The notes under the pieces were generated by a model. That model saw only the letters and a list, made by a program, of their open reading frames with translations. It was not told where the DNA came from and made no database searches. A program made the translations under genes and the position numbers. Below are positions 4,535 through 56,456 of a stretch of DNA of 64,000 bases, in pieces (the first letter of the stretch is position 1; the number at the start of each line of letters is the position of its first letter). Source of the stretch: Escherichia phage vB-Eco-KMB39; the sequence record OR539219.1; one strand, written 5' to 3'.

Positions 4535-6043
4535 ATGGATATTAAAGTACATTTTCACGACTTCAGTCATGTACGCATCGATTGTGAAGAGAGCACGTTC
4601 CACGAATTAAGAGATTTCTTTTCGTTTGAGGCAGATGGATATAGGTTTAATCCTCGCTTCAGATATGGCAACTGGGATGGACGAATCCGTCTTTTAGATT
4701 ATAATCGTCTTCTTCCGTTCGGCTTAGTCGGGCAAATTAAAAAGTTCTGCGATAACTTTGGCTATAAAGCCTGGATTGACCCTCAAATTAATGAAAAAGA
4801 AGAATTATCAAGAAAAGATTTTGATGAATGGCTTTCTAAATTAGAAATCTATTCAGGAAATAAAAGAATTGAACCACACTGGTATCAAAAAGATGCAGTG
4901 TTCGAAGGATTAGTTAATCGTCGCAGAATTCTTAATCTTCCAACATCCGCAGGTAAATCTTTAATTCAAGCTTTGCTTGCACGTTATTATTTGGAAAATT
5001 ATGAAGGTAAAATTCTTATCATTGTTCCAACAACTGCTCTGACAACTCAGATGGCTGATGACTTTGTTGACTATCGTTTATTCAGTCATGCAATGATAAA
5101 GAAAATCGGCGGCGGAGCATCAAAAGATGATAAATATAAAAATGATGCACCAGTCGTCGTTGGTACATGGCAAACTGTAGTTAAACAACCGAAAGAATGG
5201 TTCTCACAGTTTGGAATGATGATGAATGATGAATGTCATCTTGCTACAGGAAAAAGTATTTCATCTATCATATCAGGATTAAATAACTGTATGTTTAAAT
5301 TTGGTCTATCAGGTTCATTACGTGATGGCAAAGCCAATATCATGCAGTATGTTGGAATGTTTGGTGAAATATTTAAACCAGTAACGACTTCTAAATTAAT
5401 GGAAGATGGACAAGTAACTGAGCTAAAAATTAATAGTATTTTTCTTCGCTATCCCGATGAGTTCACTACTAAATTAAAGGGAAAAACTTACCAAGAAGAA
5501 ATAAAAATTATTACTGGACTCAGTAAAAGAAATAAATGGATTGCTAAATTAGCTATTAAACTTGCACAAAAAGATGAAAACGCTTTTGTCATGTTTAAGC
5601 ATGTATCACATGGTAAAGCTATTTTCGATTTAATTAAAAATGAATACGATAAAGTTTATTACGTATCAGGGGAAGTTGATACCGAAACACGCAACGTAAT
5701 GAAAACCCTAGCTGAAAACGGTAAAGGAATAATTATAGTAGCTAGTTATGGTGTATTTTCTACTGGTATTTCAGTTAAAAATCTGCATCACGTTGTTTTA
5801 GCGCACGGTGTTAAATCAAAAATCATTGTATTACAAACAATCGGTCGTGTATTACGTAAGCATGGTTCTAAGACAATAGCAACAGTCTGGGATCTTATAG
5901 ATGACGCGGGCGTAGTTTCTAAATCAAAAACATCTTCTAAAAAATACTCGCATTTAAACTATCTTTTAAAACATGGACTTGATCGTATTCAGCGTTATGC
6001 TGATGAAAAGTTTAATTATGTGATGAAAGAGGTTAAACTTTGA
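4535..6043 (+). CDS. uvsW: UvsW RNA-DNA and DNA helicase
   Basis: 502 aa; SF2 helicase motifs (Walker A region PTSAGKS, DECH box MMMNDECHLA); sequence matches recalled T4 UvsW. Confidence 0.92.
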   Translation: MDIKVHFHDFSHVRIDCEESTFHELRDFFSFEADGYRFNPRFRYGNWDGRIRLLDYNRLLPFGLVGQIKKFCDNFGYKAWIDPQINEKEELSRKDFDEWLSKLEIYSGNKRIEPHWYQKDAVFEGLVNRRRILNLPTSAGKSLIQALLARYYLENYEGKILIIVPTTALTTQMADDFVDYRLFSHAMIKKIGGGASKDDKYKNDAPVVVGTWQTVVKQPKEWFSQFGMMMNDECHLATGKSISSIISGLNNCMFKFGLSGSLRDGKANIMQYVGMFGEIFKPVTTSKLMEDGQVTELKINSIFLRYPDEFTTKLKGKTYQEEIKIITGLSKRNKWIAKLAIKLAQKDENAFVMFKHVSHGKAIFDLIKNEYDKVYYVSGEVDTETRNVMKTLAENGKGIIIVASYGVFSTGISVKNLHHVVLAHGVKSKIIVLQTIGRVLRKHGSKTIATVWDLIDDAGVVSKSKTSSKKYSHLNYLLKHGLDRIQRYADEKFNYVMKEVKL

Positions 6044-6732
6044 ATTATAAATTAATATATGATAATTTAATTAATAGAGCCCAGAATCGGGCTCGCCTTA
6101 ATGGATACACTGAAACACATCATATAATTCCTAGATGTATGGGTGGTACAAATGATAAGTGTAATTTAGTAGAACTAACGGCTGAAGAACATTTTATAGC
6201 CCATAAACTTTTAGCTAAAATTCATCCAAACCATTACGGTATAATTAAAGCTGTTATATGTATGGGGATGAATTCAAATACTCATGAAAGACACGTCAAT
6301 AAATCTTACGCATGGGAACGTCGTAAAATGGCAGAACTTCAATCCGGCGAAGGTAATCCATTTTACGGAAAACACCATACGGAAGAACATAAACAATATA
6401 TGTCAAAACTCATGAAAAGTCGTCCAATTACATGGGGAAATAAAATTAGTAAAACTAAAAGAATGAACCCAACGAAATGGACTGAAGAAGCTAAAAGATT
6501 ACATTCAATCAATCAATCGGGTAAAAATAACGGCATGTATGGAAGGAAACATTCCGCTAAATCTATTCAGAAAATTAAAGATAACATGCCAGATAATTCA
6601 GGAGCTAATAACCCAGCTGCTAAACCTATAGAAGTAAATGGTGTTAAGTATAAATGTATGAAAGATGCTTCTAAAGCTACTGGATTATCAATGTACAAAC
6701 TAAGAATACTTAGAAAAACAGTTAATTTATAA
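6040..6732 (+). CDS. Free-standing HNH homing endonuclease (Mob family) inserted after uvsW; TTG start overlapping uvsW stop
   Basis: 230 aa; N-terminus MNYKLIYDNLINRAQ...TETHHIIPRCMGGTNDKCNLVELTAEEHFIAHKLL closely parallels MobE at 33608-34339; repeated NUMOD3-like GKHHTEEHK/GRKHSAKS motifs; only in-frame start is TTG at 6040 preceded by AAAGAGG. Confidence 0.8.
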   Translation: MNYKLIYDNLINRAQNRARLNGYTETHHIIPRCMGGTNDKCNLVELTAEEHFIAHKLLAKIHPNHYGIIKAVICMGMNSNTHERHVNKSYAWERRKMAELQSGEGNPFYGKHHTEEHKQYMSKLMKSRPITWGNKISKTKRMNPTKWTEEAKRLHSINQSGKNNGMYGRKHSAKSIQKIKDNMPDNSGANNPAAKPIEVNGVKYKCMKDASKATGLSMYKLRILRKTVNL

Positions 6733-30814: not shown

Positions 30815-32402
<1,588 letters not shown>

Positions 32403-32410
32403 AATAAAAT

Positions 32411-32424
32411 GGGCCTTGCGGCCC
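32411..32424 (-). other. RNA hairpin between nrdB stop and denA start
   Basis: GGGCC-TTGC-GGCCC directly upstream of denA ATG; possible terminator or translational control. Confidence 0.4.
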
Positions 32425-32429
32425 ACTCC

Positions 32430-33608
32430 TTAAAAGTATTTTTTAAAACTCATCATAACTTTATCATCAACATCATTATCAATCTGTGCAACAAGATAAG
32501 ATGACAGTTCTACTTCTTGCGGCGCGGATTGAACATTATCAGAATTAAGGTATTCACGAATCCAAGGATATGGATGTTTAACCGGAGCATCGGTAATTGG
32601 GCATGGAAGACCACACTGTTTCATACGAGATACAGTTAAGTAATCAATAAAGCTCCACATGCTATTTGTATTTAATCCAGGAACATCGCCATCTTTAAAT
32701 AAATGAACTGCCCAATCTTTTTCTTGGCGGTTAACTTCCATGAAAATATCAACTGCTTCTTGTTCACACTCTTTGGCAATTTTAACCCATTCATCACCAT
32801 CAGTGCCAAGTTGAAGTTGACGAATAATATACTGGGTGCCTTTAAGGTGGAGTTGTTCGTCTCGAGCAATGAATTTCATAATCTTCGCATTACCTTCCAT
32901 GATTTCCATATTTTTATGGAAGTTGAAAGTACATGCAAAGGATACATAAAAACGAATAGCTTCCAGGGCATTGATAACATGAAGGCAGAGATAAAGCGAC
33001 TTCATCAATGCATATTTACATTCTTCCACATGCATAAGACTATTTGAATATGCATCTAAATCATATTCATTTTCGGAAAAACATTTAAAAATTTCTTTTG
33101 CATTTTCCCATTCGCGCGTCTTAACCAGAACATCATCATAATAACGACCAATAGATTCAGCACGTTTCATGATAGCTTTATCTAATACAATCTCATCAAA
33201 TACCTTTGACGGATCAGTATAAAGATTTCGCATAATATGAGTGTATGAACGACTGTGAATAGTTTCACTAAAAGTCCATGTAGCAACCCATGTATCAAGA
33301 CTTGGGTCTGAAATTAACGACATAAGTACAGCAGACGGTGCACGACCCTGAATGCTATCTAGAAGTGATTGATACTTCAGGTTATTAGTAAAAATATCTT
33401 GCTGATATTGAGGAAGCTTGTTAAATTGCGCAGCATCCATCATTAAGTTTACTTCTTCAGGACGCCAGAAAAATGACAACTGCTTTTCGGTTAAATCTTC
33501 AAAAACTTTATGACGTTGAATATCGTAACGCGCAATACCAAGACCTGAACCGAAGAACATAGGTTCTTTTAAAACATCAACTGGATTTGTATTAAAAACT
33601 GTAGACAT
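32430..33608 (-). CDS. nrdB: Ribonucleotide reductase small subunit, intronless
   Basis: 392 aa from ATG at 33608 (MSTVFNTNPVD...); di-iron ligand motifs; single uninterrupted ORF. Confidence 0.92.
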   Translation of the reverse strand: MSTVFNTNPVDVLKEPMFFGSGLGIARYDIQRHKVFEDLTEKQLSFFWRPEEVNLMMDAAQFNKLPQYQQDIFTNNLKYQSLLDSIQGRAPSAVLMSLISDPSLDTWVATWTFSETIHSRSYTHIMRNLYTDPSKVFDEIVLDKAIMKRAESIGRYYDDVLVKTREWENAKEIFKCFSENEYDLDAYSNSLMHVEECKYALMKSLYLCLHVINALEAIRFYVSFACTFNFHKNMEIMEGNAKIMKFIARDEQLHLKGTQYIIRQLQLGTDGDEWVKIAKECEQEAVDIFMEVNRQEKDWAVHLFKDGDVPGLNTNSMWSFIDYLTVSRMKQCGLPCPITDAPVKHPYPWIREYLNSDNVQSAPQEVELSSYLVAQIDNDVDDKVMMSFKKYF

Positions 33609-34339
33609 TAATTTTTCCTCTTTAAAATTCTGCCGCGTTTCCAACCTGGCGGTATAATATCATCTTTACCTATAAGCGTGCATTCACTTCCATTATTAAT
33701 CCATTTCTTACCGCGGATTCCTTTATAATCTCTTGGTTGTATTTTGTCAAACTTTGCATCAAGTTGATATGCCCATCGAAATCCATAGGCATATTGAAAT
33801 TTACCCTCAGCACAATATTTGATATTTGACCCGTTTCCATTAACTGACCTGGACGCTGCGGCAATAGAGTGAAAGGTTTCTATGAAATCCCCATCTAATG
33901 AGAATTTATGTATTTCGATAGATGGGCATGCATACCTATTCACGTTTGATACATGTTGTTTAGTTTCGTTTTTATGATGCTTGCCTAACATTCCTCTAGG
34001 ATGAGGATTATTTTTCCAATATTTCTTAAAGAAATCAGAATTAGCTTTAGCAAATAATTTTCTGTGCAAGCTATACAATCTGTTATTAATTCTATTACCA
34101 GCTTTATCTGTTGCCATTAACGTTAACGCAGAGGCAAGACCAAAATGGCCTTCATTTATCTTGCATAGTAATAGATGCGCTATAAAATGTTCTCTAGCTG
34201 TTAATTCAACTAAATTTTCTTTATCATCAGAACCTCCCATGCATTTAGGGACTATATGATGTGTCTCTTTATACTCGGATAAATGTTCCCGAGCCTGAGC
34301 TCGGGAAATTAGGTCATTATAGATTTTTTGATAATTCAT
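33608..34339 (-). CDS. mobE: HNH homing endonuclease MobE
   Basis: 243 aa; HNH motif region ETHHIVPKCMGGSDDKENLVELTAREHFIAH; sits between nrdA and nrdB as T4 mobE; stop overlaps nrdB start (TAATG). Confidence 0.82.
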   Translation of the reverse strand: MNYQKIYNDLISRAQAREHLSEYKETHHIVPKCMGGSDDKENLVELTAREHFIAHLLLCKINEGHFGLASALTLMATDKAGNRINNRLYSLHRKLFAKANSDFFKKYWKNNPHPRGMLGKHHKNETKQHVSNVNRYACPSIEIHKFSLDGDFIETFHSIAAASRSVNGNGSNIKYCAEGKFQYAYGFRWAYQLDAKFDKIQPRDYKGIRGKKWINNGSECTLIGKDDIIPPGWKRGRILKRKN

Positions 34340-36603
34340 TACAATTTACACGCTGCACAATCGTCGGCTTTAGGAGTTTCTATTTCATAATCATCAGTAC
34401 CAGAACCATCACGGGTATTATGATAATAGAAATTTTTAATGCCATAATACCATCCGTATAACATGTCATCAATCATTATTGACATTGGAACCTTTCCTTT
34501 TGGAAAAATCTGCGGGTCATAGTATGTATTCGCTGAAGCTGATTGACATACCCATTTCAGCATAATAGCTACCTGCGTAAGATAAGGTTTATTACCTTTC
34601 TTAGCTAATTTCCACGTATAATCATATAGGTCTATGTTATGCTCAATATTGGGCACGACTTGATTAAAGGAGCCCTCTTTTGATTCTTTAACAGAGACTG
34701 GTCCACGTGGAGGCTCGATACCGTTTGTACTGTTAGAAACTTGGGAAGATGACTCACATGGCATAAGTGCTGATAATGTGCTATTACGGATGCCAAAGAG
34801 CTTAAGGTCTTCCCGCAGCGCCGACCAGTCACAAACGTATTTTGGAGATGCGATTTGGTCAATCTTTTTATTGTACCAGTCGATAGGTAATTCGCCTCGA
34901 GACCAACGAGTGTCTGAATAATATTCGCAAGGTCCTTTTTCTTTGGCGAGCTTAATGGATGCTTTAATGAGTCCATACTGTAATCTCTCAAATAGTTCAT
35001 GTGTTAAATCATTAGCATCTTCATAAGAAGCAAAGTTACTTGCCAGCCAAGCTGCATAGTTGGTAACACCTACGCCAAGATTTCGACGCTTTTTAGCTTT
35101 TTCTGCTTCAGGAACCGGATATCCTTGGTAATCCAAAAGATTATCAAGAGCACGAACTTGAACTTCTGCCAATTCATTAATTTTATCTTGGTCTTGCCAG
35201 TCAAAATTATCTAATACGAATGCAGAGAGAGTACACAATCCAATTTCAGCATCAGGACTATTCACATCATTTGTTGGAATAGCAATTTCACAGCACAAGT
35301 TACTCTGACGAATAGGTGCCTTTTCACGAATAAACGGAGTATAGTTATTCGTATTATCAATGAACTGCACATAAATCCTTGCTGTTCCTGAGCGTTCAGT
35401 CATGAGTAATTCAAATAGTTCACGGGCTTTAATACGCTTTTTACGAATATTAGGGTCTTTTTCTGCGGCTTCGTACAATTCACGGAAACGGTCTTGGTCT
35501 TTAAAATAAGAATAATAAAGCTCGCCACCCATTTCATGCGGACTGAACAAAGTAATGTAGTCGTTCTTTCCAAAACGTTCCATCATCAAATCATTCAGCT
35601 GGACGCCATAATCCATATGACGGATACGGTTTTCTTCTACACCCTTGTTATTTTTTAGAACGAGAAGATTTTCAACTTCCAAATGCCAAATAGGATAATA
35701 AGCAGTAGCAGCGCCGCCACGAATTCCACCCTGTGAGCATGATTTAACAGCAGTCTGAAAATGTTTCCAAAAAGGAATAACACCAGTATGGCGTACTTCA
35801 CCCATGCCAATCTTAGAACCTTCGGCACGAATCATACCAACGTTAATACCAATTCCAGCACGTTTGGAGATATATTCAACAATTGAAGTGGAAGCCTTAT
35901 TGATAGACTTTAATGAATCACCTGCCTCAATAACAACACATGAACTAAACTGTCGAGTCGGAGTACGGCAACCAGCCATAATAGGAGTTGGTAATGAAAT
36001 CTGTCGAGTAGATACTGCTTCATAAAAATGAATAACATGTTTTAATCTATCAATAGGTTCATCTTGATGCAATGCCATTCCAATAGTCATAAATGCAAAC
36101 TGAGGAGTTTCATAAATTTGACCAGTGGTTTTATCTTTAACTAGATATTTTTCTTTTAATTGCATCGCCCCGGAATAAGTAAATTCCATATCCCGCTCGT
36201 GCTTAATTTTTGATTCTAAAAATGTAATTTCTTCTGCTGAATATTTTGACAATAATTCAGGGTCATATTTACCTTCATTTACACAGTAAGAAATATGGTC
36301 AATAAATGAACGTGGTTCATACTGCCCATAAACATGCTTACGAAGAGCAAACATTAAACAACGTGCAGCTACATATTGATAATCAGGCTCTTCAACTGAA
36401 ATAGAATTCGCAGCAGCCTTAATTACAATGGTTTGAATGTCATCAGTGGTCATTCCATCACGGAGATATGATTTAATATTTTCATATAATTCATAAGGAT
36501 CTACAGATGTTCCTTCAGCTGCCCAAGATAAAACTTTAATAATTTTTTGCGGGTCAAAGCTTTGAGAAACACCACTACTTTTGATAACATTAATTAATTG
36601 CAT
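34339..36603 (-). CDS. nrdA: Ribonucleotide reductase large subunit
   Basis: 754 aa; ATP-cone N-terminus, class I RNR catalytic region; same length as T4 NrdA. Confidence 0.93.
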   Translation of the reverse strand: MQLINVIKSSGVSQSFDPQKIIKVLSWAAEGTSVDPYELYENIKSYLRDGMTTDDIQTIVIKAAANSISVEEPDYQYVAARCLMFALRKHVYGQYEPRSFIDHISYCVNEGKYDPELLSKYSAEEITFLESKIKHERDMEFTYSGAMQLKEKYLVKDKTTGQIYETPQFAFMTIGMALHQDEPIDRLKHVIHFYEAVSTRQISLPTPIMAGCRTPTRQFSSCVVIEAGDSLKSINKASTSIVEYISKRAGIGINVGMIRAEGSKIGMGEVRHTGVIPFWKHFQTAVKSCSQGGIRGGAATAYYPIWHLEVENLLVLKNNKGVEENRIRHMDYGVQLNDLMMERFGKNDYITLFSPHEMGGELYYSYFKDQDRFRELYEAAEKDPNIRKKRIKARELFELLMTERSGTARIYVQFIDNTNNYTPFIREKAPIRQSNLCCEIAIPTNDVNSPDAEIGLCTLSAFVLDNFDWQDQDKINELAEVQVRALDNLLDYQGYPVPEAEKAKKRRNLGVGVTNYAAWLASNFASYEDANDLTHELFERLQYGLIKASIKLAKEKGPCEYYSDTRWSRGELPIDWYNKKIDQIASPKYVCDWSALREDLKLFGIRNSTLSALMPCESSSQVSNSTNGIEPPRGPVSVKESKEGSFNQVVPNIEHNIDLYDYTWKLAKKGNKPYLTQVAIMLKWVCQSASANTYYDPQIFPKGKVPMSIMIDDMLYGWYYGIKNFYYHNTRDGSGTDDYEIETPKADDCAACKL

Positions 36604-36920
36604 AAGTCCTCAACTTGAAAATCGTCTTTAAACAATCGGTTAACTATATGAGCTATTATATCACCATGACACGGCTTTGGTTTACATGTGCATCCTAGCC
36701 TCATTCCACGTAAAGGCTCTAAATGTGCTTTAGTTATTTCTCCGGATTTAATTCGACGTATAAAATCTTTTTTGAATAATTCAATGGCAGCCTCCCGGCT
36801 GCCAGCATCTTTACCGACGTAATTTCCCCAAAATGTACCACGGTGAATATTAACATCAAAGTCGGATTTATATTTATTCACTACCTGGCATAGACGGCCC
36901 GCGCGGTGATAATTCGTCAT
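36594..36920 (-). CDS. Hypothetical Cys-rich protein (position of T4 nrdA.1)
   Basis: 108 aa ORF; [11 protein letters not shown] motif. Confidence 0.55.
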
Positions 36921-37149
36921 ATTGTTTTTCCGTTAAAACAGTAATATCATAGTAACAATCTGAAGAAGTTTTAACTGTAGAAATTTTATTATCAAAATAC
37001 TCACGAGTCATTTTATGAGTATAATATTTTTTGCCATAAATGATAATAGGCTGATTTGGTCCTGGAACTTCTAACTCACTTGGGTTAGGAAGTGTAAAAA
37101 GAACTACACCAGAAGTATCTTTAAATCGTAAAATCATATATCCTCGCAA
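36874..37149 (-). CDS. Hypothetical protein (position of T4 nrdA.2)
   Basis: 91 aa ORF. Confidence 0.55.
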
Positions 37150-37160
37150 TTAATAATTAA

Positions 37161-37472
37161 TTACACCGCCATTTTTCCTTTAATAGGAGGGTGTGATTCG
37201 TAACCTTTAAGAACGAAATCTTTAGGCCTGAGTTTAAGAACATATTTTAATTGTTCTTTAGTAGAAAGATGACGGAATTTATAAGGCAATCCGCCTATTA
37301 CCAGTTCACAAAGCTCTTTAGGTTCACGACGTAAAATTTCTTTACATTGTTCAACGTGATTCATATAGATATGAGTATTACCGCCAGAAAATATCAAATC
37401 TCCAGGAATAAGATTACACATCTTAGCTACAATATGAATTAACGCAGCATATGATGCAATATTAAACGGTAG
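37161..37472 (-). CDS. td: Thymidylate synthase, exon 2
   Basis: Exon 2 encodes LPFNIASYAALIHIVAKMCNLIPGDLIFSGGNTHIYMNH...; joins exon 1 in frame after the intron. Confidence 0.9.
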   Translation of the reverse strand, partial: LPFNIASYAALIHIVAKMCNLIPGDLIFSGGNTHIYMNHVEQCKEILRREPKELCELVIGGLPYKFRHLSTKEQLKYVLKLRPKDFVLKGYESHPPIKGKMAV

Positions 37473-38488
37473 CATTATGTTCAGATAAGGTCGTTAATCT
37501 TACCCCGGAATTATATCCAGCTGCATGTCACCATGCAGAGCAGACTATATCTCCAACTTGTTAAAGCAAGTTGTCTATCGTTTCGAGTCACTTGACCCTA
37601 CTCCCAAAAGGGATAGTCGTTAGGCATTTATGTAGAACCAATTCCATTTATCAGATTTTACACGATAAGTAACTAATCCAGACGAAATTTTAAAATGTCT
37701 AGCTGCATCTGCTGCACAATCAAAAATAACCCCATCACATGAAATCTTTTTAATATTACTAGGCTTTTTACCTTTCATCTTTTCTGATATTTTAGATTTA
37801 GTTATGTCTGAATGCTTATGATTAAAGAATGAATTATTTTCACCTGAACGATTTCTGCATTTACTACAAGTATAAGCAGAAGTTTGTATGCGAACACCGC
37901 ACTTACAAAACTTATGGGTTTCTGGATTCCAACGTCCGTTTTTACTTCCGGGTTTACTGTAAAGAGCTTTCCGACCATCAGATCCAAGTTTAAGCATCTT
38001 AGCTTTAACAGTTTCAGAACGTTTCTTAATAATTTCTTCTTTTAATGGATGCGTAGAACATGTATCACCAAACGTTGCATCAGCAATATTGTATCCATTA
38101 ATTTTAGAATTAAGCTCTTTAATCCAAAAATTTTCTCGTTCAATAATCAAATCTTTCTCATATGGAATTTCTTCCAAAATAGAACATTCAAACACATTAC
38201 CATGTTTGTTAAAAGACCTCTGAAGTTTTATAGAAGAATGGCATCCTTTTTCTAAATCTTTAAAATGCCTCTTCCATCTCTTTTCAAAATCTTTAGCACT
38301 TCCTACATATACTTTATTGTTTAAAGTATTTTTAATCTGATAAATTCCGCTTTTCATAAATACCTCTTTAAATATAGAAGTATTTATTAAAGGGCAGTCC
38401 TACAATTTAGCACGGGATTGTCTACTAGAGAGGTTCCCCGTTTAGATAGATTACAAGTATAAGTCACCTTATACTCAGGCCTCAATTA
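37473..38488 (-). ncRNA. Self-splicing group I intron of td (1016 nt) carrying the I-TevI ORF
   Basis: 5' end UAAUUGAGGCCUGAGUAUAAGGUGACUUAUACUUGUAAUCUAUCUAAACGGGGAACCUCUCUAGUAGACAAUCCCGUGCUAAAUUGUAGGACU and 3' end ...GACCUUAUCUGAACAUAAUG match the recalled T4 td intron; exon 1 ends in U, intron ends in G. Confidence 0.9.
37620..38357 (-). CDS. I-TevI: Intron-encoded GIY-YIG homing endonuclease I-TevI
   Basis: 245 aa; MKSGIYQIKNTLNNKVYVGSAKDFEKRWKRH... matches recalled I-TevI; lies inside the td intron. Confidence 0.93.
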   Translation of the reverse strand: MKSGIYQIKNTLNNKVYVGSAKDFEKRWKRHFKDLEKGCHSSIKLQRSFNKHGNVFECSILEEIPYEKDLIIERENFWIKELNSKINGYNIADATFGDTCSTHPLKEEIIKKRSETVKAKMLKLGSDGRKALYSKPGSKNGRWNPETHKFCKCGVRIQTSAYTCSKCRNRSGENNSFFNHKHSDITKSKISEKMKGKKPSNIKKISCDGVIFDCAADAARHFKISSGLVTYRVKSDKWNWFYINA

Positions 38489-39037
38489 ACCCAAGAAAAC
38501 ATCTACTGATCGTTGATACCACTGCAAATCCAAATAGCCATTACGCACATTAAACTGATAGAACATATGACAAGGCGGTAATGCCATTTGCTTGAGTTCA
38601 GCTGGATTCCATGCTGAAACAACTTGACGTCTATCATTTGGCAGTTTTTTAATACGATCAATAACTTCTACAATTTGGTCTACACCGCCAAAATCACGCC
38701 ATTGTTTTCCATAAATTGGACCAAGTTCACCGCTATGGTATCCTAAATCTTTTGCTTGATTTTCGTAATTTTCATCCCAGACTGTTTTGCCTTGAATTAA
38801 TGAATCATGCTGAATTAATCGTAAATCATTTACGTTAGTACTTCCTGACAAAAACCATATTAGCTCAGCAATACAAGCTTTCCAGGCGAGCTTCTTAGTC
38901 GTTACTGCAGGAAAACCTTTAGTTAAATCCCAGCGTAATTTAGTACCGAACAAAGCAATTGTTCCTGTGCCTGTTCGGTCATCGGTTTCATAGCCATTTT
39001 CAAAAATGTCTTTAATTAAATCTTGGTATTGTTTCAT
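38489..39037 (-). CDS. td: Thymidylate synthase, exon 1
   Basis: 183 aa; MKQYQDLIKDIFENGYETDDRTGTGTIALFG...; active-site region ALPPCH; in-frame stop lies just inside the intron. Confidence 0.92.
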
Positions 39038-39082
39038 TTAGTACCTTATATAAATTATAATACATTTTATGAAGCTAAATAA

Positions 39083-39445
39083 TCAATACGGTTTAGCATC
39101 AAATTTTCTTTCAATTTCAGGCGTGAAATACAATTCTTTACCGCGTTTGGAAAAGCGACCAATAATATGATAATTATTCTCATCAAACGTAATATTGCCA
39201 ATATCCATAGCTTTCAACCAAATATCGATATTTCTATCCAGTTTTATATCAAAATTCCAATACGGAGAACTATTACCGAAAATACTGCAAGCGGATTCAG
39301 TGCAATAACTGCTGCTATAAATCTTGTCTTTGGGAACTACTAATTGATAGACGCCTTTGATAAACTGAGGACCCTGCCATTTTGGTTGTTTCGCGTCTTT
39401 TTCTAATAGAATAGGATAATAATTAAAGTTCATATTTTCCGCCAC
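39083..39445 (-). CDS. Hypothetical protein inserted between frd and td (not expected from T4 gene order)
   Basis: 120 aa ORF MAENMNFNYYPILLEKDAKQPKWQGPQF...; no recognised motifs. Confidence 0.55.
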   Translation of the reverse strand: MAENMNFNYYPILLEKDAKQPKWQGPQFIKGVYQLVVPKDKIYSSSYCTESACSIFGNSSPYWNFDIKLDRNIDIWLKAMDIGNITFDENNYHIIGRFSKRGKELYFTPEIERKFDAKPY

Positions 39446-39453
39446 GCGTTATT

Positions 39454-40041
<588 letters not shown>

Positions 40042-56028: not shown

Positions 56029-56181
56029 TCAATTAGTTGACTTTGTTATAATATCATCAGACGCTTGATTTGTAAACTGGTCTGTGTTATTTTCTTCAAA
56101 AATTTTTTCTACGAATTCCTTGAACGACTCACGTTCCTGAGCTACATTGTGCTCGATTACCTTTTCAAGATTATGACTCAT
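56029..56181 (-). CDS. Small acidic protein between arn and asiA, below ORF-track cutoff
   Basis: Hand-translated 50 aa ORF MSHNLEKVIEHNVAQERESFKEFVEKIFEENNTDQFTNQASDDIITKSTN; ATGA overlap with arn stop. Confidence 0.45.
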   Translation of the reverse strand: MSHNLEKVIEHNVAQERESFKEFVEKIFEENNTDQFTNQASDDIITKSTN

Positions 56182-56456
56182 TCGAAATAATCTTCAATTT
56201 CGTAATCATGGACATAAATCATTATAGTTTTTAATACATCATCAATACTTTTTCCTGGAGCTGGAATTACGTAAAAATATCCTACTTTTGAGAGGTCTTT
56301 ATAAGTTCCAACCAAGAAATCATTATTCTCAAGATGTAGTTCTTCAACTAATTCATTGACAATTGAGTGGTATAAATTTGGTAGAAACTTATATAGCTTT
56401 TCTAGAATATCAATTTTGATTGTATATTGAACCACAGATTGAGAATCAATAATCAT
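56178..56456 (-). CDS. arn: Arn anti-restriction protein (inhibitor of McrBC)
   Basis: 92 aa; MIIDSQSVVQYTIKIDILEKLYKFLPNLYHSIVNELVEELHLENNDFLVG...; acidic. Confidence 0.85.
   Translation of the reverse strand: MIIDSQSVVQYTIKIDILEKLYKFLPNLYHSIVNELVEELHLENNDFLVGTYKDLSKVGYFYVIPAPGKSIDDVLKTIMIYVHDYEIEDYFE

Follow-up and report, generated by a model that had tools for sequence, protein, structure and literature searches.

A free-standing HNH gene of the RB3 mobE type beside an intronless nrdB in a T4-like Escherichia phage

Introduction

A well-described counterpart of the locus reported here is that of phage T4, in which nrdB carries a 598-nt intron with a truncated I-TevIII after nt 676, and the HNH gene mobE lies between nrdA and nrdB with a UAAUGA-type coupling to nrdA. 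T4 MobE (232 aa in T4T, HM137666) consists of HNH and NUMOD3 domains detected with Pfam, followed by a C-terminal zinc finger (CPHC...H..C) that can be recognised by eye. MobE-dependent nicks were mapped to nt 122-126 of T2 nrdB, and it was proposed that polymorphisms at nrdB nt 114-131 shield mobE-bearing genomes, with the HNH head placed on nt 114-131 and the DNA-binding module on the FFWRPEE codons (Wilson & Edgell, PMC2790892). Activity of T4 MobE is characterised by this nicking of empty-site phages, which is strand-specific, and by HNH-dependent super-Mendelian inheritance. T4 MobE has also been implicated in moving the nrdB intron, as a sequence-only reading of the present locus correctly noted (PMC2790892). 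Crosses of T4 with T2 gave sequenced mobE+ I-TevIII- progeny, in which the exchange was placed within the first 189 nt of nrdB (Wilson & Edgell 2009, PMC2790892).

The same junction is occupied in other phages. T6 has an HNH gene at this site (mobE, 213 aa) next to an intronless nrdB, and phages of the RB3 group (RB3, AY262130/KM606994; RB10, AIT74320) have an nrdB intron with an intact I-TevIII ORF. Phage U5 reportedly carries Hef at the nrdA-nrdB junction (Sandegren et al. 2005), an endonuclease that is said to target nrdB and is described as unrelated to mobE (PMC2988022). Hef offers an earlier case of one homing endonuclease gene replacing another as an allele at this junction. A similar domain plan is found in I-HmuI, the HNH nickase of Bacillus phage SPO1, which likewise combines an N-terminal HNH domain with NUMOD-type DNA-binding elements and is encoded in an intron, whereas the gene described here is free-standing.

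Here we analyse the nrdA-nrdB junction in a 64,000-nt stretch of Escherichia phage vB-Eco-KMB39 (OR539219.1), hereafter the window. The sequence-only reading had described mobE next to an intronless nrdB and had regarded the combination as an informative intermediate in the independent spread of endonuclease and intron.

Results

The window is a T4-like (Tequatrovirus) segment, its top long matches being 95-97% identical and belonging to RB3-group and other Escherichia phages. On the minus strand the gene order is pseT, alc, rnlA, denA, nrdB, the HNH gene, nrdA, nrdA.1, nrdA.2 and td, the last with the I-TevI intron. The interval 32430-34339 singled out by the sequence-only reading coincides exactly with nrdB plus the HNH gene, and the stop/start overlap that it noted between them is present, the TAA of the HNH gene sharing an A with the ATG of nrdB (TAATG). 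The TAA of nrdA overlaps the ATG of the HNH gene in the same way (TAATG, shared A). The HNH gene is therefore placed as expected for the mobE locus, as an ORF between nrdA and nrdB on one strand with its start overlapping the nrdA stop; ORFs and alignments both support a free-standing HNH gene at the T4 mobE position beside an intronless nrdB. The features of the locus are listed below.

34339..36603, minus strand: nrdA, RNR large subunit, 754 aa (ORF)
33608..34339, minus strand: HNH gene, assigned to the RB3-type 'mobE' allele, free-standing, 243 aa, intact (ORF and database matches)
34150..34339, minus strand: 5' segment of mobE common to T4 and T6 mobE (~97% nt), with the HNH motif (alignments)
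34286..34307, minus strand: hairpin internal to mobE (RNA fold; sequence identical to T4)
33611..34149, minus strand: allele-specific 3' two-thirds of mobE, presumed DNA-binding region (alignments, Pfam)
33809-33901, minus strand: NUMOD1 of the HNH gene product, aa 147-177 (Pfam)
32430..33608, minus strand: nrdB, ATG 33608-33606, stop 32432-32430; 1179 nt, 392 codons (ORF)
33525..33555, minus strand: exchange interval, nrdB nt 54-84 (difference lists from alignments)
33478..33495, minus strand: homolog of the T4-MobE nick site, nrdB nt 114-131 (alignment; nick position from PMC2790892)
33483-33487, minus strand: positions equivalent to the T4-MobE nicks at nrdB nt 122-126 (transferred from PMC2790892)
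32966..33125, minus strand: hypervariable nrdB segment, nt ~484-643 (alignments)
32932..32933, minus strand: empty nrdB intron insertion site, nt 676/677, GCAT/GTAC (alignment with intron-bearing T4 and RB10 nrdB)

The description of nrdB as a single uninterrupted ORF of ~392 codons proved accurate. The gene aligns without gaps and is colinear with the 1179-nt intronless nrdB of T2 and of KMB42, and its product gives a full-length small-subunit match to Pfam Ribonuc_red_sm (126 bits; class Ia RNR). Alignment with T4 nrdB, which had been suggested as a check, located the empty intron site at nrdB nt 676/677, and the coding sequence for FYVSFACTFNF runs unbroken across it, between 32933 and 32932. 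Compared with the intron-minus T4 substrate, this nrdB allele has 5-6 silent changes within about 35 bp of the site. Neither the T4 intron nor the ~1.1-kb insertion that follows nt 676 in RB10 nrdB has an equivalent here. A relaxed Rfam scan of 32000-39500 detected no group I intron in nrdB or mobE; the td group I intron at 37521-37751 was recovered as a positive control (E 1e-7), and the other match was to L20-leader, by chance. At gathering thresholds Rfam gave no match across the whole window. We rejected a cryptic nrdB intron because the Rfam matches were limited to the td intron and the chance L20-leader. The gene also contains a hypervariable segment, which differs near-completely among the window, T2, T4 and RB10.

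The HNH gene product is identical to that of ESh29 (100%) and 99.2% identical to the RB10 protein annotated as 'mobE', and its DNA is identical to that of SYGD1 (100%). We counted as RB3-type those genes with at least 95% full-length identity to the 243-aa protein of RB3/RB10, the specific 3' 530 nt included; the window gene falls within this class, and on these alignments we assign it to the RB3-type 'mobE' allele. The same 243-aa protein (99.2-100% aa) is found in the RB3 group, ESh29, SYGD1 and U115, with the insertion site and the overlaps with nrdA and nrdB also the same as in the window. In contrast, the intron with its I-TevIII ORF that characterises RB3-group nrdB is missing from the window, SYGD1 and ESh29, and the nrdB allele of the window is, unlike that of the RB3 group, otherwise found only in mobE-less phages.

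The name mobE taken from T4 was therefore only partly borne out. Position, start overlap, hairpin and the first ~62 codons match T4 mobE, but T4 MobE has nothing related to the C-terminal ~140 aa. At the DNA level, the first ~190 nt match T4 at ~97%, and no similarity is left from there to the nrdB ATG. BLASTP against the 232-aa T4 MobE aligned only aa 1-105 (62%), with 55 of the first 60 residues identical (92%) and no similarity past aa ~105. The comparison with T4 mobE that the sequence-only reading had called for thus supported homology of the HNH head and failed to extend it to the C-terminal DNA-binding region. For the window protein and its orthologs from phages RZ and Melville, Pfam detected HNH and NUMOD1, as opposed to the HNH and NUMOD3 of T4 MobE. 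Since the DNA-binding part differs (NUMOD1 versus NUMOD3 and zinc finger), data from T4 on target, self-protection and intron co-conversion are not simply transferable to this gene. T6 mobE has its N-terminal 60 aa in common with the window protein, a middle part that is a third variant, and a C-terminal ~85 aa that is T4-like (NUMOD3 and zinc finger) and not RB3-like. Given these differences among the T4, T6 and RB3 types, the public 'mobE' label covers no fewer than three alleles, which agree in the nuclease head but differ in the parts presumed to bind DNA.

In the RefSeq entry for T4 (NC_000866), the region is split into mobE of 141 aa and nrdB.1 of 83 aa. A decayed T4 mobE copy was rejected as the reason, as newer T4 sequences are 2 nt shorter and T4T has one ORF of 232 aa; the mobE/nrdB.1 split is an artefact, produced by two surplus bases in the older sequence. 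Full-length orthologs of the window gene are present at the same junction in Gaprivervirus RZ (72.7% aa) and Gelderlandvirus Melville (59% aa), each adjoining an intronless 1179-nt nrdB.

The sequence-only reading had named a mobE pseudogene as a finding that would speak against it. We rejected this on the integrity of the ORF and on dN/dS, which by the Nei-Gojobori method was 0.10 in the comparison with SH7, 0.07 with RB10 and 0.11 with the ortholog of Gaprivervirus RZ. Codons 1-62 and codons 63-243 gave similar values, and mobE is under purifying selection across both modules. By inspection, the HNH motif retains its catalytic residues H28, N42 and H51, which do not vary in the ortholog protein alignment. 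The match to Pfam HNH (PF01844) scored 20.4 bits (E 5.8e-4), just under the gathering cutoff of 21.4, and NUMOD1 (PF07453) scored 25.9 bits, above its cutoff of 22.8; PHROG 655, 'homing endonuclease', matched with E 2e-57. A sequence search of the PDB with the HNH protein gave no significant match to any solved structure, the one marginal hit being to the HNH part of a group II intron maturase, and a single-sequence AlphaFold model was unusable (pLDDT 37). The Melville ortholog weakly matched the NUMOD-like domain of I-HmuI.

The hairpin within mobE has a 9-bp stem and a 4-nt loop (UCAG), lies 32 nt past the AUG, and folds with -16.7 kcal/mol (z -2.4). A hairpin of like form in T4 mobE is a weak intrinsic terminator (PMC2790892), and the window hairpin, identical in sequence, is its counterpart. 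A scan of the region for sigma-70 promoters and terminators gave no more matches than shuffled sequence. By eye, a candidate MotA-box-like motif (GCTTAT-N12-TATTAT) was spotted at 33654-33677.

How common the arrangement is was assessed by a census of an annotated phage collection, using BLAST-type matches to the allele-specific segments. The numbers of records were as follows.

Empty T2-type nrdA-nrdB junction: ~374 records
RB3-type specific 3' part: exactly 54 phage records, 95.6-100% identity
T4-type specific part, full length: 21 records
T6-like, with only the T4 3' half in common: ~50 records
nrdB intron: ~117 records

Among the 54 RB3-type carriers, nrdB is intronless in 42 and carries the intron with the I-TevIII ORF in 12. 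In 40 of the 54, the mobE plus nrdB query matched as one 1910-nt BLAST piece, so that these have no intron; Ptacy1496 and JoYop are also intronless. The 12 carriers with the intron are three RB3 records, RB5, RB6, RB7, RB9, RB10, GEC_SH_GT, two records of pSe_SNUABM_01, and G2540-3. T6 adds a further mobE next to an intronless nrdB, SHFML-26 combines a T6-type mobE with the intron, and PV295201 and PV368562 combine an empty junction with the intron, so that all four combinations of mobE and intron exist. The nrdA-mobE-nrdB arrangement with an intronless nrdB is already known and common. The proposal that it represents an informative intermediate was therefore not sustained: it is the majority state of this allele, it is the state of T6, and crosses have already produced it.

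Pairwise comparison of the locus showed that its two parts match different phages. SYGD1 shows zero differences to the window from nrdA nt 1990, across mobE, up to nrdB nt 53, and the 133 aligned differences between the two all lie outside that stretch. For KMB42 the number of differences is again zero from nrdB nt 85 to the stop at nt 1179, and the identity continues into denA; KMB42 has a 51-nt empty junction and no mobE. The exchange interval therefore has the SYGD1 mobE cassette upstream and the KMB42 nrdB downstream. Because the cassette is that of SYGD1 and the nrdB body that of the mobE-less KMB42, the window phage is a recombinant: one lineage supplied the cassette together with ~275 nt from the 3' end of nrdA and no more than 84 nt of nrdB, and a second lineage supplied nrdB.

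Four silent variants at nrdB nt 54-84 are common to the window, ph0021 and PsgM02F, and the latter two match the window without a difference across the final 100 nt of mobE and the initial 160 nt of nrdB, the identity of ph0021 reaching nrdB nt 260. The hypervariable nrdB segment of the window occurs at 100% identity in ten records, none of them among the 54 mobE carriers. Every database record stays at or below 96.1% identity across the full 1910 nt, so the pairing of this cassette with this nrdB allele is new, though only in the sense of a recombinant whose parts are all known. The identical mobE cassette is also found in phages with an nrdB ~6% diverged from that of the window.

Whether mobE is present is reflected in the last ~35 nt of nrdA. 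The nrdA product ends in ...PKADDCAACKL in the window, T4 and RB10, and in ...PKAEDCSSCKL in T2 and KMB42, which have the empty junction. This covariation fits a cassette that moves with a short piece of nrdA. Exchange points of the kind seen in the window could also stem from ordinary T-even recombination, as opposed to endonuclease-initiated repair.

At the nick site, nrdB of the window is of the T2 type. Over nt 85-300 it agrees at 100% with T2, whose nrdB is nicked by T4 MobE, whereas T4 nrdB has the nick-site polymorphisms. SYGD1 and RB10 have silent changes at nrdB nt 117 and 129. That the window alone has both mobE and a T2-type nick site was rejected, since ph0021 and PsgM02F are 100% identical there and likewise match T2 across the site. 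If specificity is shared between the alleles, a T2-type nick site in the window is a misfit with the published self-protection model.

Discussion

We consider it very likely that the locus is an ordinary Tequatrovirus nrdA-mobE-nrdB arrangement with an RB3-type free-standing HNH homing endonuclease allele, that it is recombinant, and that intron and mobE assort independently. By analogy with T4, mobE would be co-transcribed with nrdA (PMC2790892, PMC2988022), and its expression may be kept low by translational coupling and by attenuation at the hairpin. In a mixed infection, the RB3-type product would nick or cut a phage with an empty junction in an HNH-dependent manner, putatively near the nrdA/nrdB boundary or in the nrdB 5' region, and repair would then copy the cassette into the recipient. 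The nrdB of the window would be intronless because neither parent lineage had the intron. The intron would spread through its own I-TevIII, or by co-conversion only when already linked; moving by I-TevIII or close linkage, it would assort independently of mobE.

Three other explanations were weighed against this reading. That the gene is a T4 mobE ortholog in a genome yet to receive the nrdB intron, and hence a rare evolutionary intermediate, is suggested by the T4-like position, start overlap, hairpin and first ~62 codons, and by the GenBank label 'mobE' on the RB3 and RB10 copies; we judge it improbable, as the relationship to T4 MobE does not extend to the C-terminal ~140 aa and the state is neither rare (42 of 54 carriers, and T6, with all four combinations in existence) nor confined to one recent clone, the nrdB alleles of intronless carriers differing by up to ~8%. 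The silent sites flanking the insertion site, moreover, are of the KMB42 type and not of the T4 or RB3 type. These flanks also bear on whether an nrdB intron was once present and was precisely lost, either through a cDNA-mediated route or because recombination brought in an intronless allele. The 12 intron-bearing carriers of the same mobE allele show that linkage exists in the population, but over nt 85-1179 nrdB agrees fully (100%) with that of KMB42, a phage with neither intron nor mobE, and several silent differences separate the region near the insertion site from the exon flanks of T4 and RB10. Identity to KMB42 and these silent differences suggest that the entire nrdB body was exchanged, or that this allele had been intronless all along, and not that a local precise deletion took place; we regard such a loss as very improbable.

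The remaining explanation concerns mobE itself, which might be a domesticated or decaying, non-mobile passenger retained for cassette signals that nrdB expression needs. In T4, a middle promoter for nrdB inside mobE has been argued to select against deletion of mobE (Wilson & Edgell, PMC2790892); in the window, the candidate MotA-box-like motif at 33654-33677 and the T2-identical nick site, kept with no apparent harm, are consistent with a passenger of this kind. Nevertheless, dN/dS is ~0.1 over the whole ORF, catalytic residues included, identical cassettes occur in diverged backgrounds, and the full-length ORF is conserved in three genera, and we consider a passenger unlikely.

Returning to a mobile RB3-type endonuclease as the preferred explanation, the T2-type nick site suggests either that the enzyme cuts elsewhere, having a different tail, or that it tolerates its own site. 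Cleavage of their own sites by SegH and Hef was reportedly described by Sandegren et al. in 2005. We tentatively put forward, as a possibility somewhat short of an even chance, that the nrdA-nrdB junction is contested by at least three mobE alleles (T4-, T6- and RB3-type), with a common HNH head kept near-identical by recombination with the adjacent nrdA end and with swapped DNA-binding tails, and that the RB3-type enzyme has another target than T4 MobE or that self-nicking is tolerated. The reason for invoking a different target or self-tolerance is that several carriers (the window, ph0021 and PsgM02F) have the exact T2 nick site. If this is true, the published self-protection model would be limited to the T4 allele.

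Independent spread of mobE and the nrdB intron has already been documented experimentally (PMC2790892), and is visible in T6 and in dozens of Tequatroviruses. What the present analysis contributes are corrections: the gene is assigned to the RB3-type allele instead of T4's mobE, and the split of T4 mobE into mobE and nrdB.1 is a sequence artefact. Caution is warranted when results for T4 MobE are applied to other 'mobE' genes, as the annotation includes alleles with unrelated DNA-binding regions. The window phage is a clean natural recombinant that joins an identical cassette to the nrdB of a lineage without mobE and leaves a T2-type nick site unprotected, and it could be used for testing what the RB3-type enzyme cuts.

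Annotation of mobE in phage T4

In RefSeq T4 (NC_000866), the mobE region (5717-6417) is annotated as two ORFs, "mobE" (141 aa) and "nrdB.1" (83 aa). We compared this region with positions 204-902 of the T4T sequence (HM137666). Three-frame translation of the NC_000866 region showed continuous NUMOD3 repeats spanning two frameshifts, and newer T4 sequences, in which this stretch is 2 nt shorter, encode a single MobE of 232 aa. Together, these observations indicate that nrdB.1 of T4 most likely owes its existence to errors in the older sequence.

Variation at the 3' end of nrdA

Two features near the end of nrdA were examined:
34340-34375, minus strand: nrdA tail variant, the last ~35 nt of nrdA, compared with L003 and L004 (KMB42)
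KMB42 nrdA nt 2140-2166, near the nrdA 3' end: dense substitution patch

The presence or absence of mobE between nrdA and nrdB co-varies with the C-terminal tail of NrdA. The tail reads ...PKADDCAACKL in mobE carriers, T4-type and RB3-type alike, and ...PKAEDCSSCKL in T2 and KMB42, both of which have an empty junction. Both cysteines are retained in the two tails, and the change falls on residues between them. The KMB42 patch contains 11 substitutions, converting ...DDMLYGWYYGI... to ...DDLLYFWYFGG..., and was not found in the window, T2, SYGD1 or ph0021. A local conversion tract is one possible explanation for the patch, a variant endonuclease target site another.

Phage REP3 (OQ174502) shares the nrdB allele of the window and lacks the RB3-type mobE. 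It contains an HNH-head match at 56117-56410, ~1.5 kb upstream of nrdB, which would map inside nrdA if nrdA directly adjoins nrdB in this phage. This match could be a further endonuclease insertion near or within nrdA.

Elements flanking nrdB and the td intron

Three further features were located in the window:
33654-33677, minus strand: GCTTAT-N12-TATTAT, within the final 70 nt of the HNH gene, identified by eye only
32411-32424: hairpin GGGCC-GCAA-GGCCC followed by a T-run, in the interval from the nrdB stop (32430) to the denA ATG (32402)
37161-38357, minus strand: td exon 2 and I-TevI, with an Rfam match to a group I intron at 37521-37751

The candidate at 33654-33677 resembles a MotA box with a -10 element of a middle promoter, and nrdB could be transcribed from it; neither the RZ nor the Melville ortholog of the HNH gene conserves this motif. 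A promoter driving nrdB has been reported at the 3' end of T4 mobE (PMC2790892).

The annotation of phage G2540-3 marks the same hairpin and T-run as a putative terminator. Mechanical ORF listing gave denA as a GTG-extended ORF of 144 aa, but the gene probably starts at the ATG at 32402 and encodes 136 aa.

The window td carries a group I intron with an intact I-TevI (245 aa); td has no intron (861 nt) in T2 record AP018813 and in KMB42. The window intron scored 40.2 bits against an Rfam gathering threshold of 50, and was thus missed at that threshold and detected only by a relaxed scan.

A hypervariable cassette within nrdB

Within nrdB, one segment stood out:
32966-33125, minus strand: hypervariable cassette, nrdB nt ~484-643, aa ~162-214

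The rest of nrdB is conserved around this cassette, which is nearly unrelated in sequence and slightly different in length among the window, T2, T4 and RB10. In E. coli R2, it corresponds to the surface excursion that precedes the helix ...LYLCL...ALEAIRFYVSFA. Ten Tequatrovirus records contain the window version at 100% identity. The next-nearest class, at 93%, has Mosigvirus phages among its members, which suggests that the cassette has been exchanged between genera.
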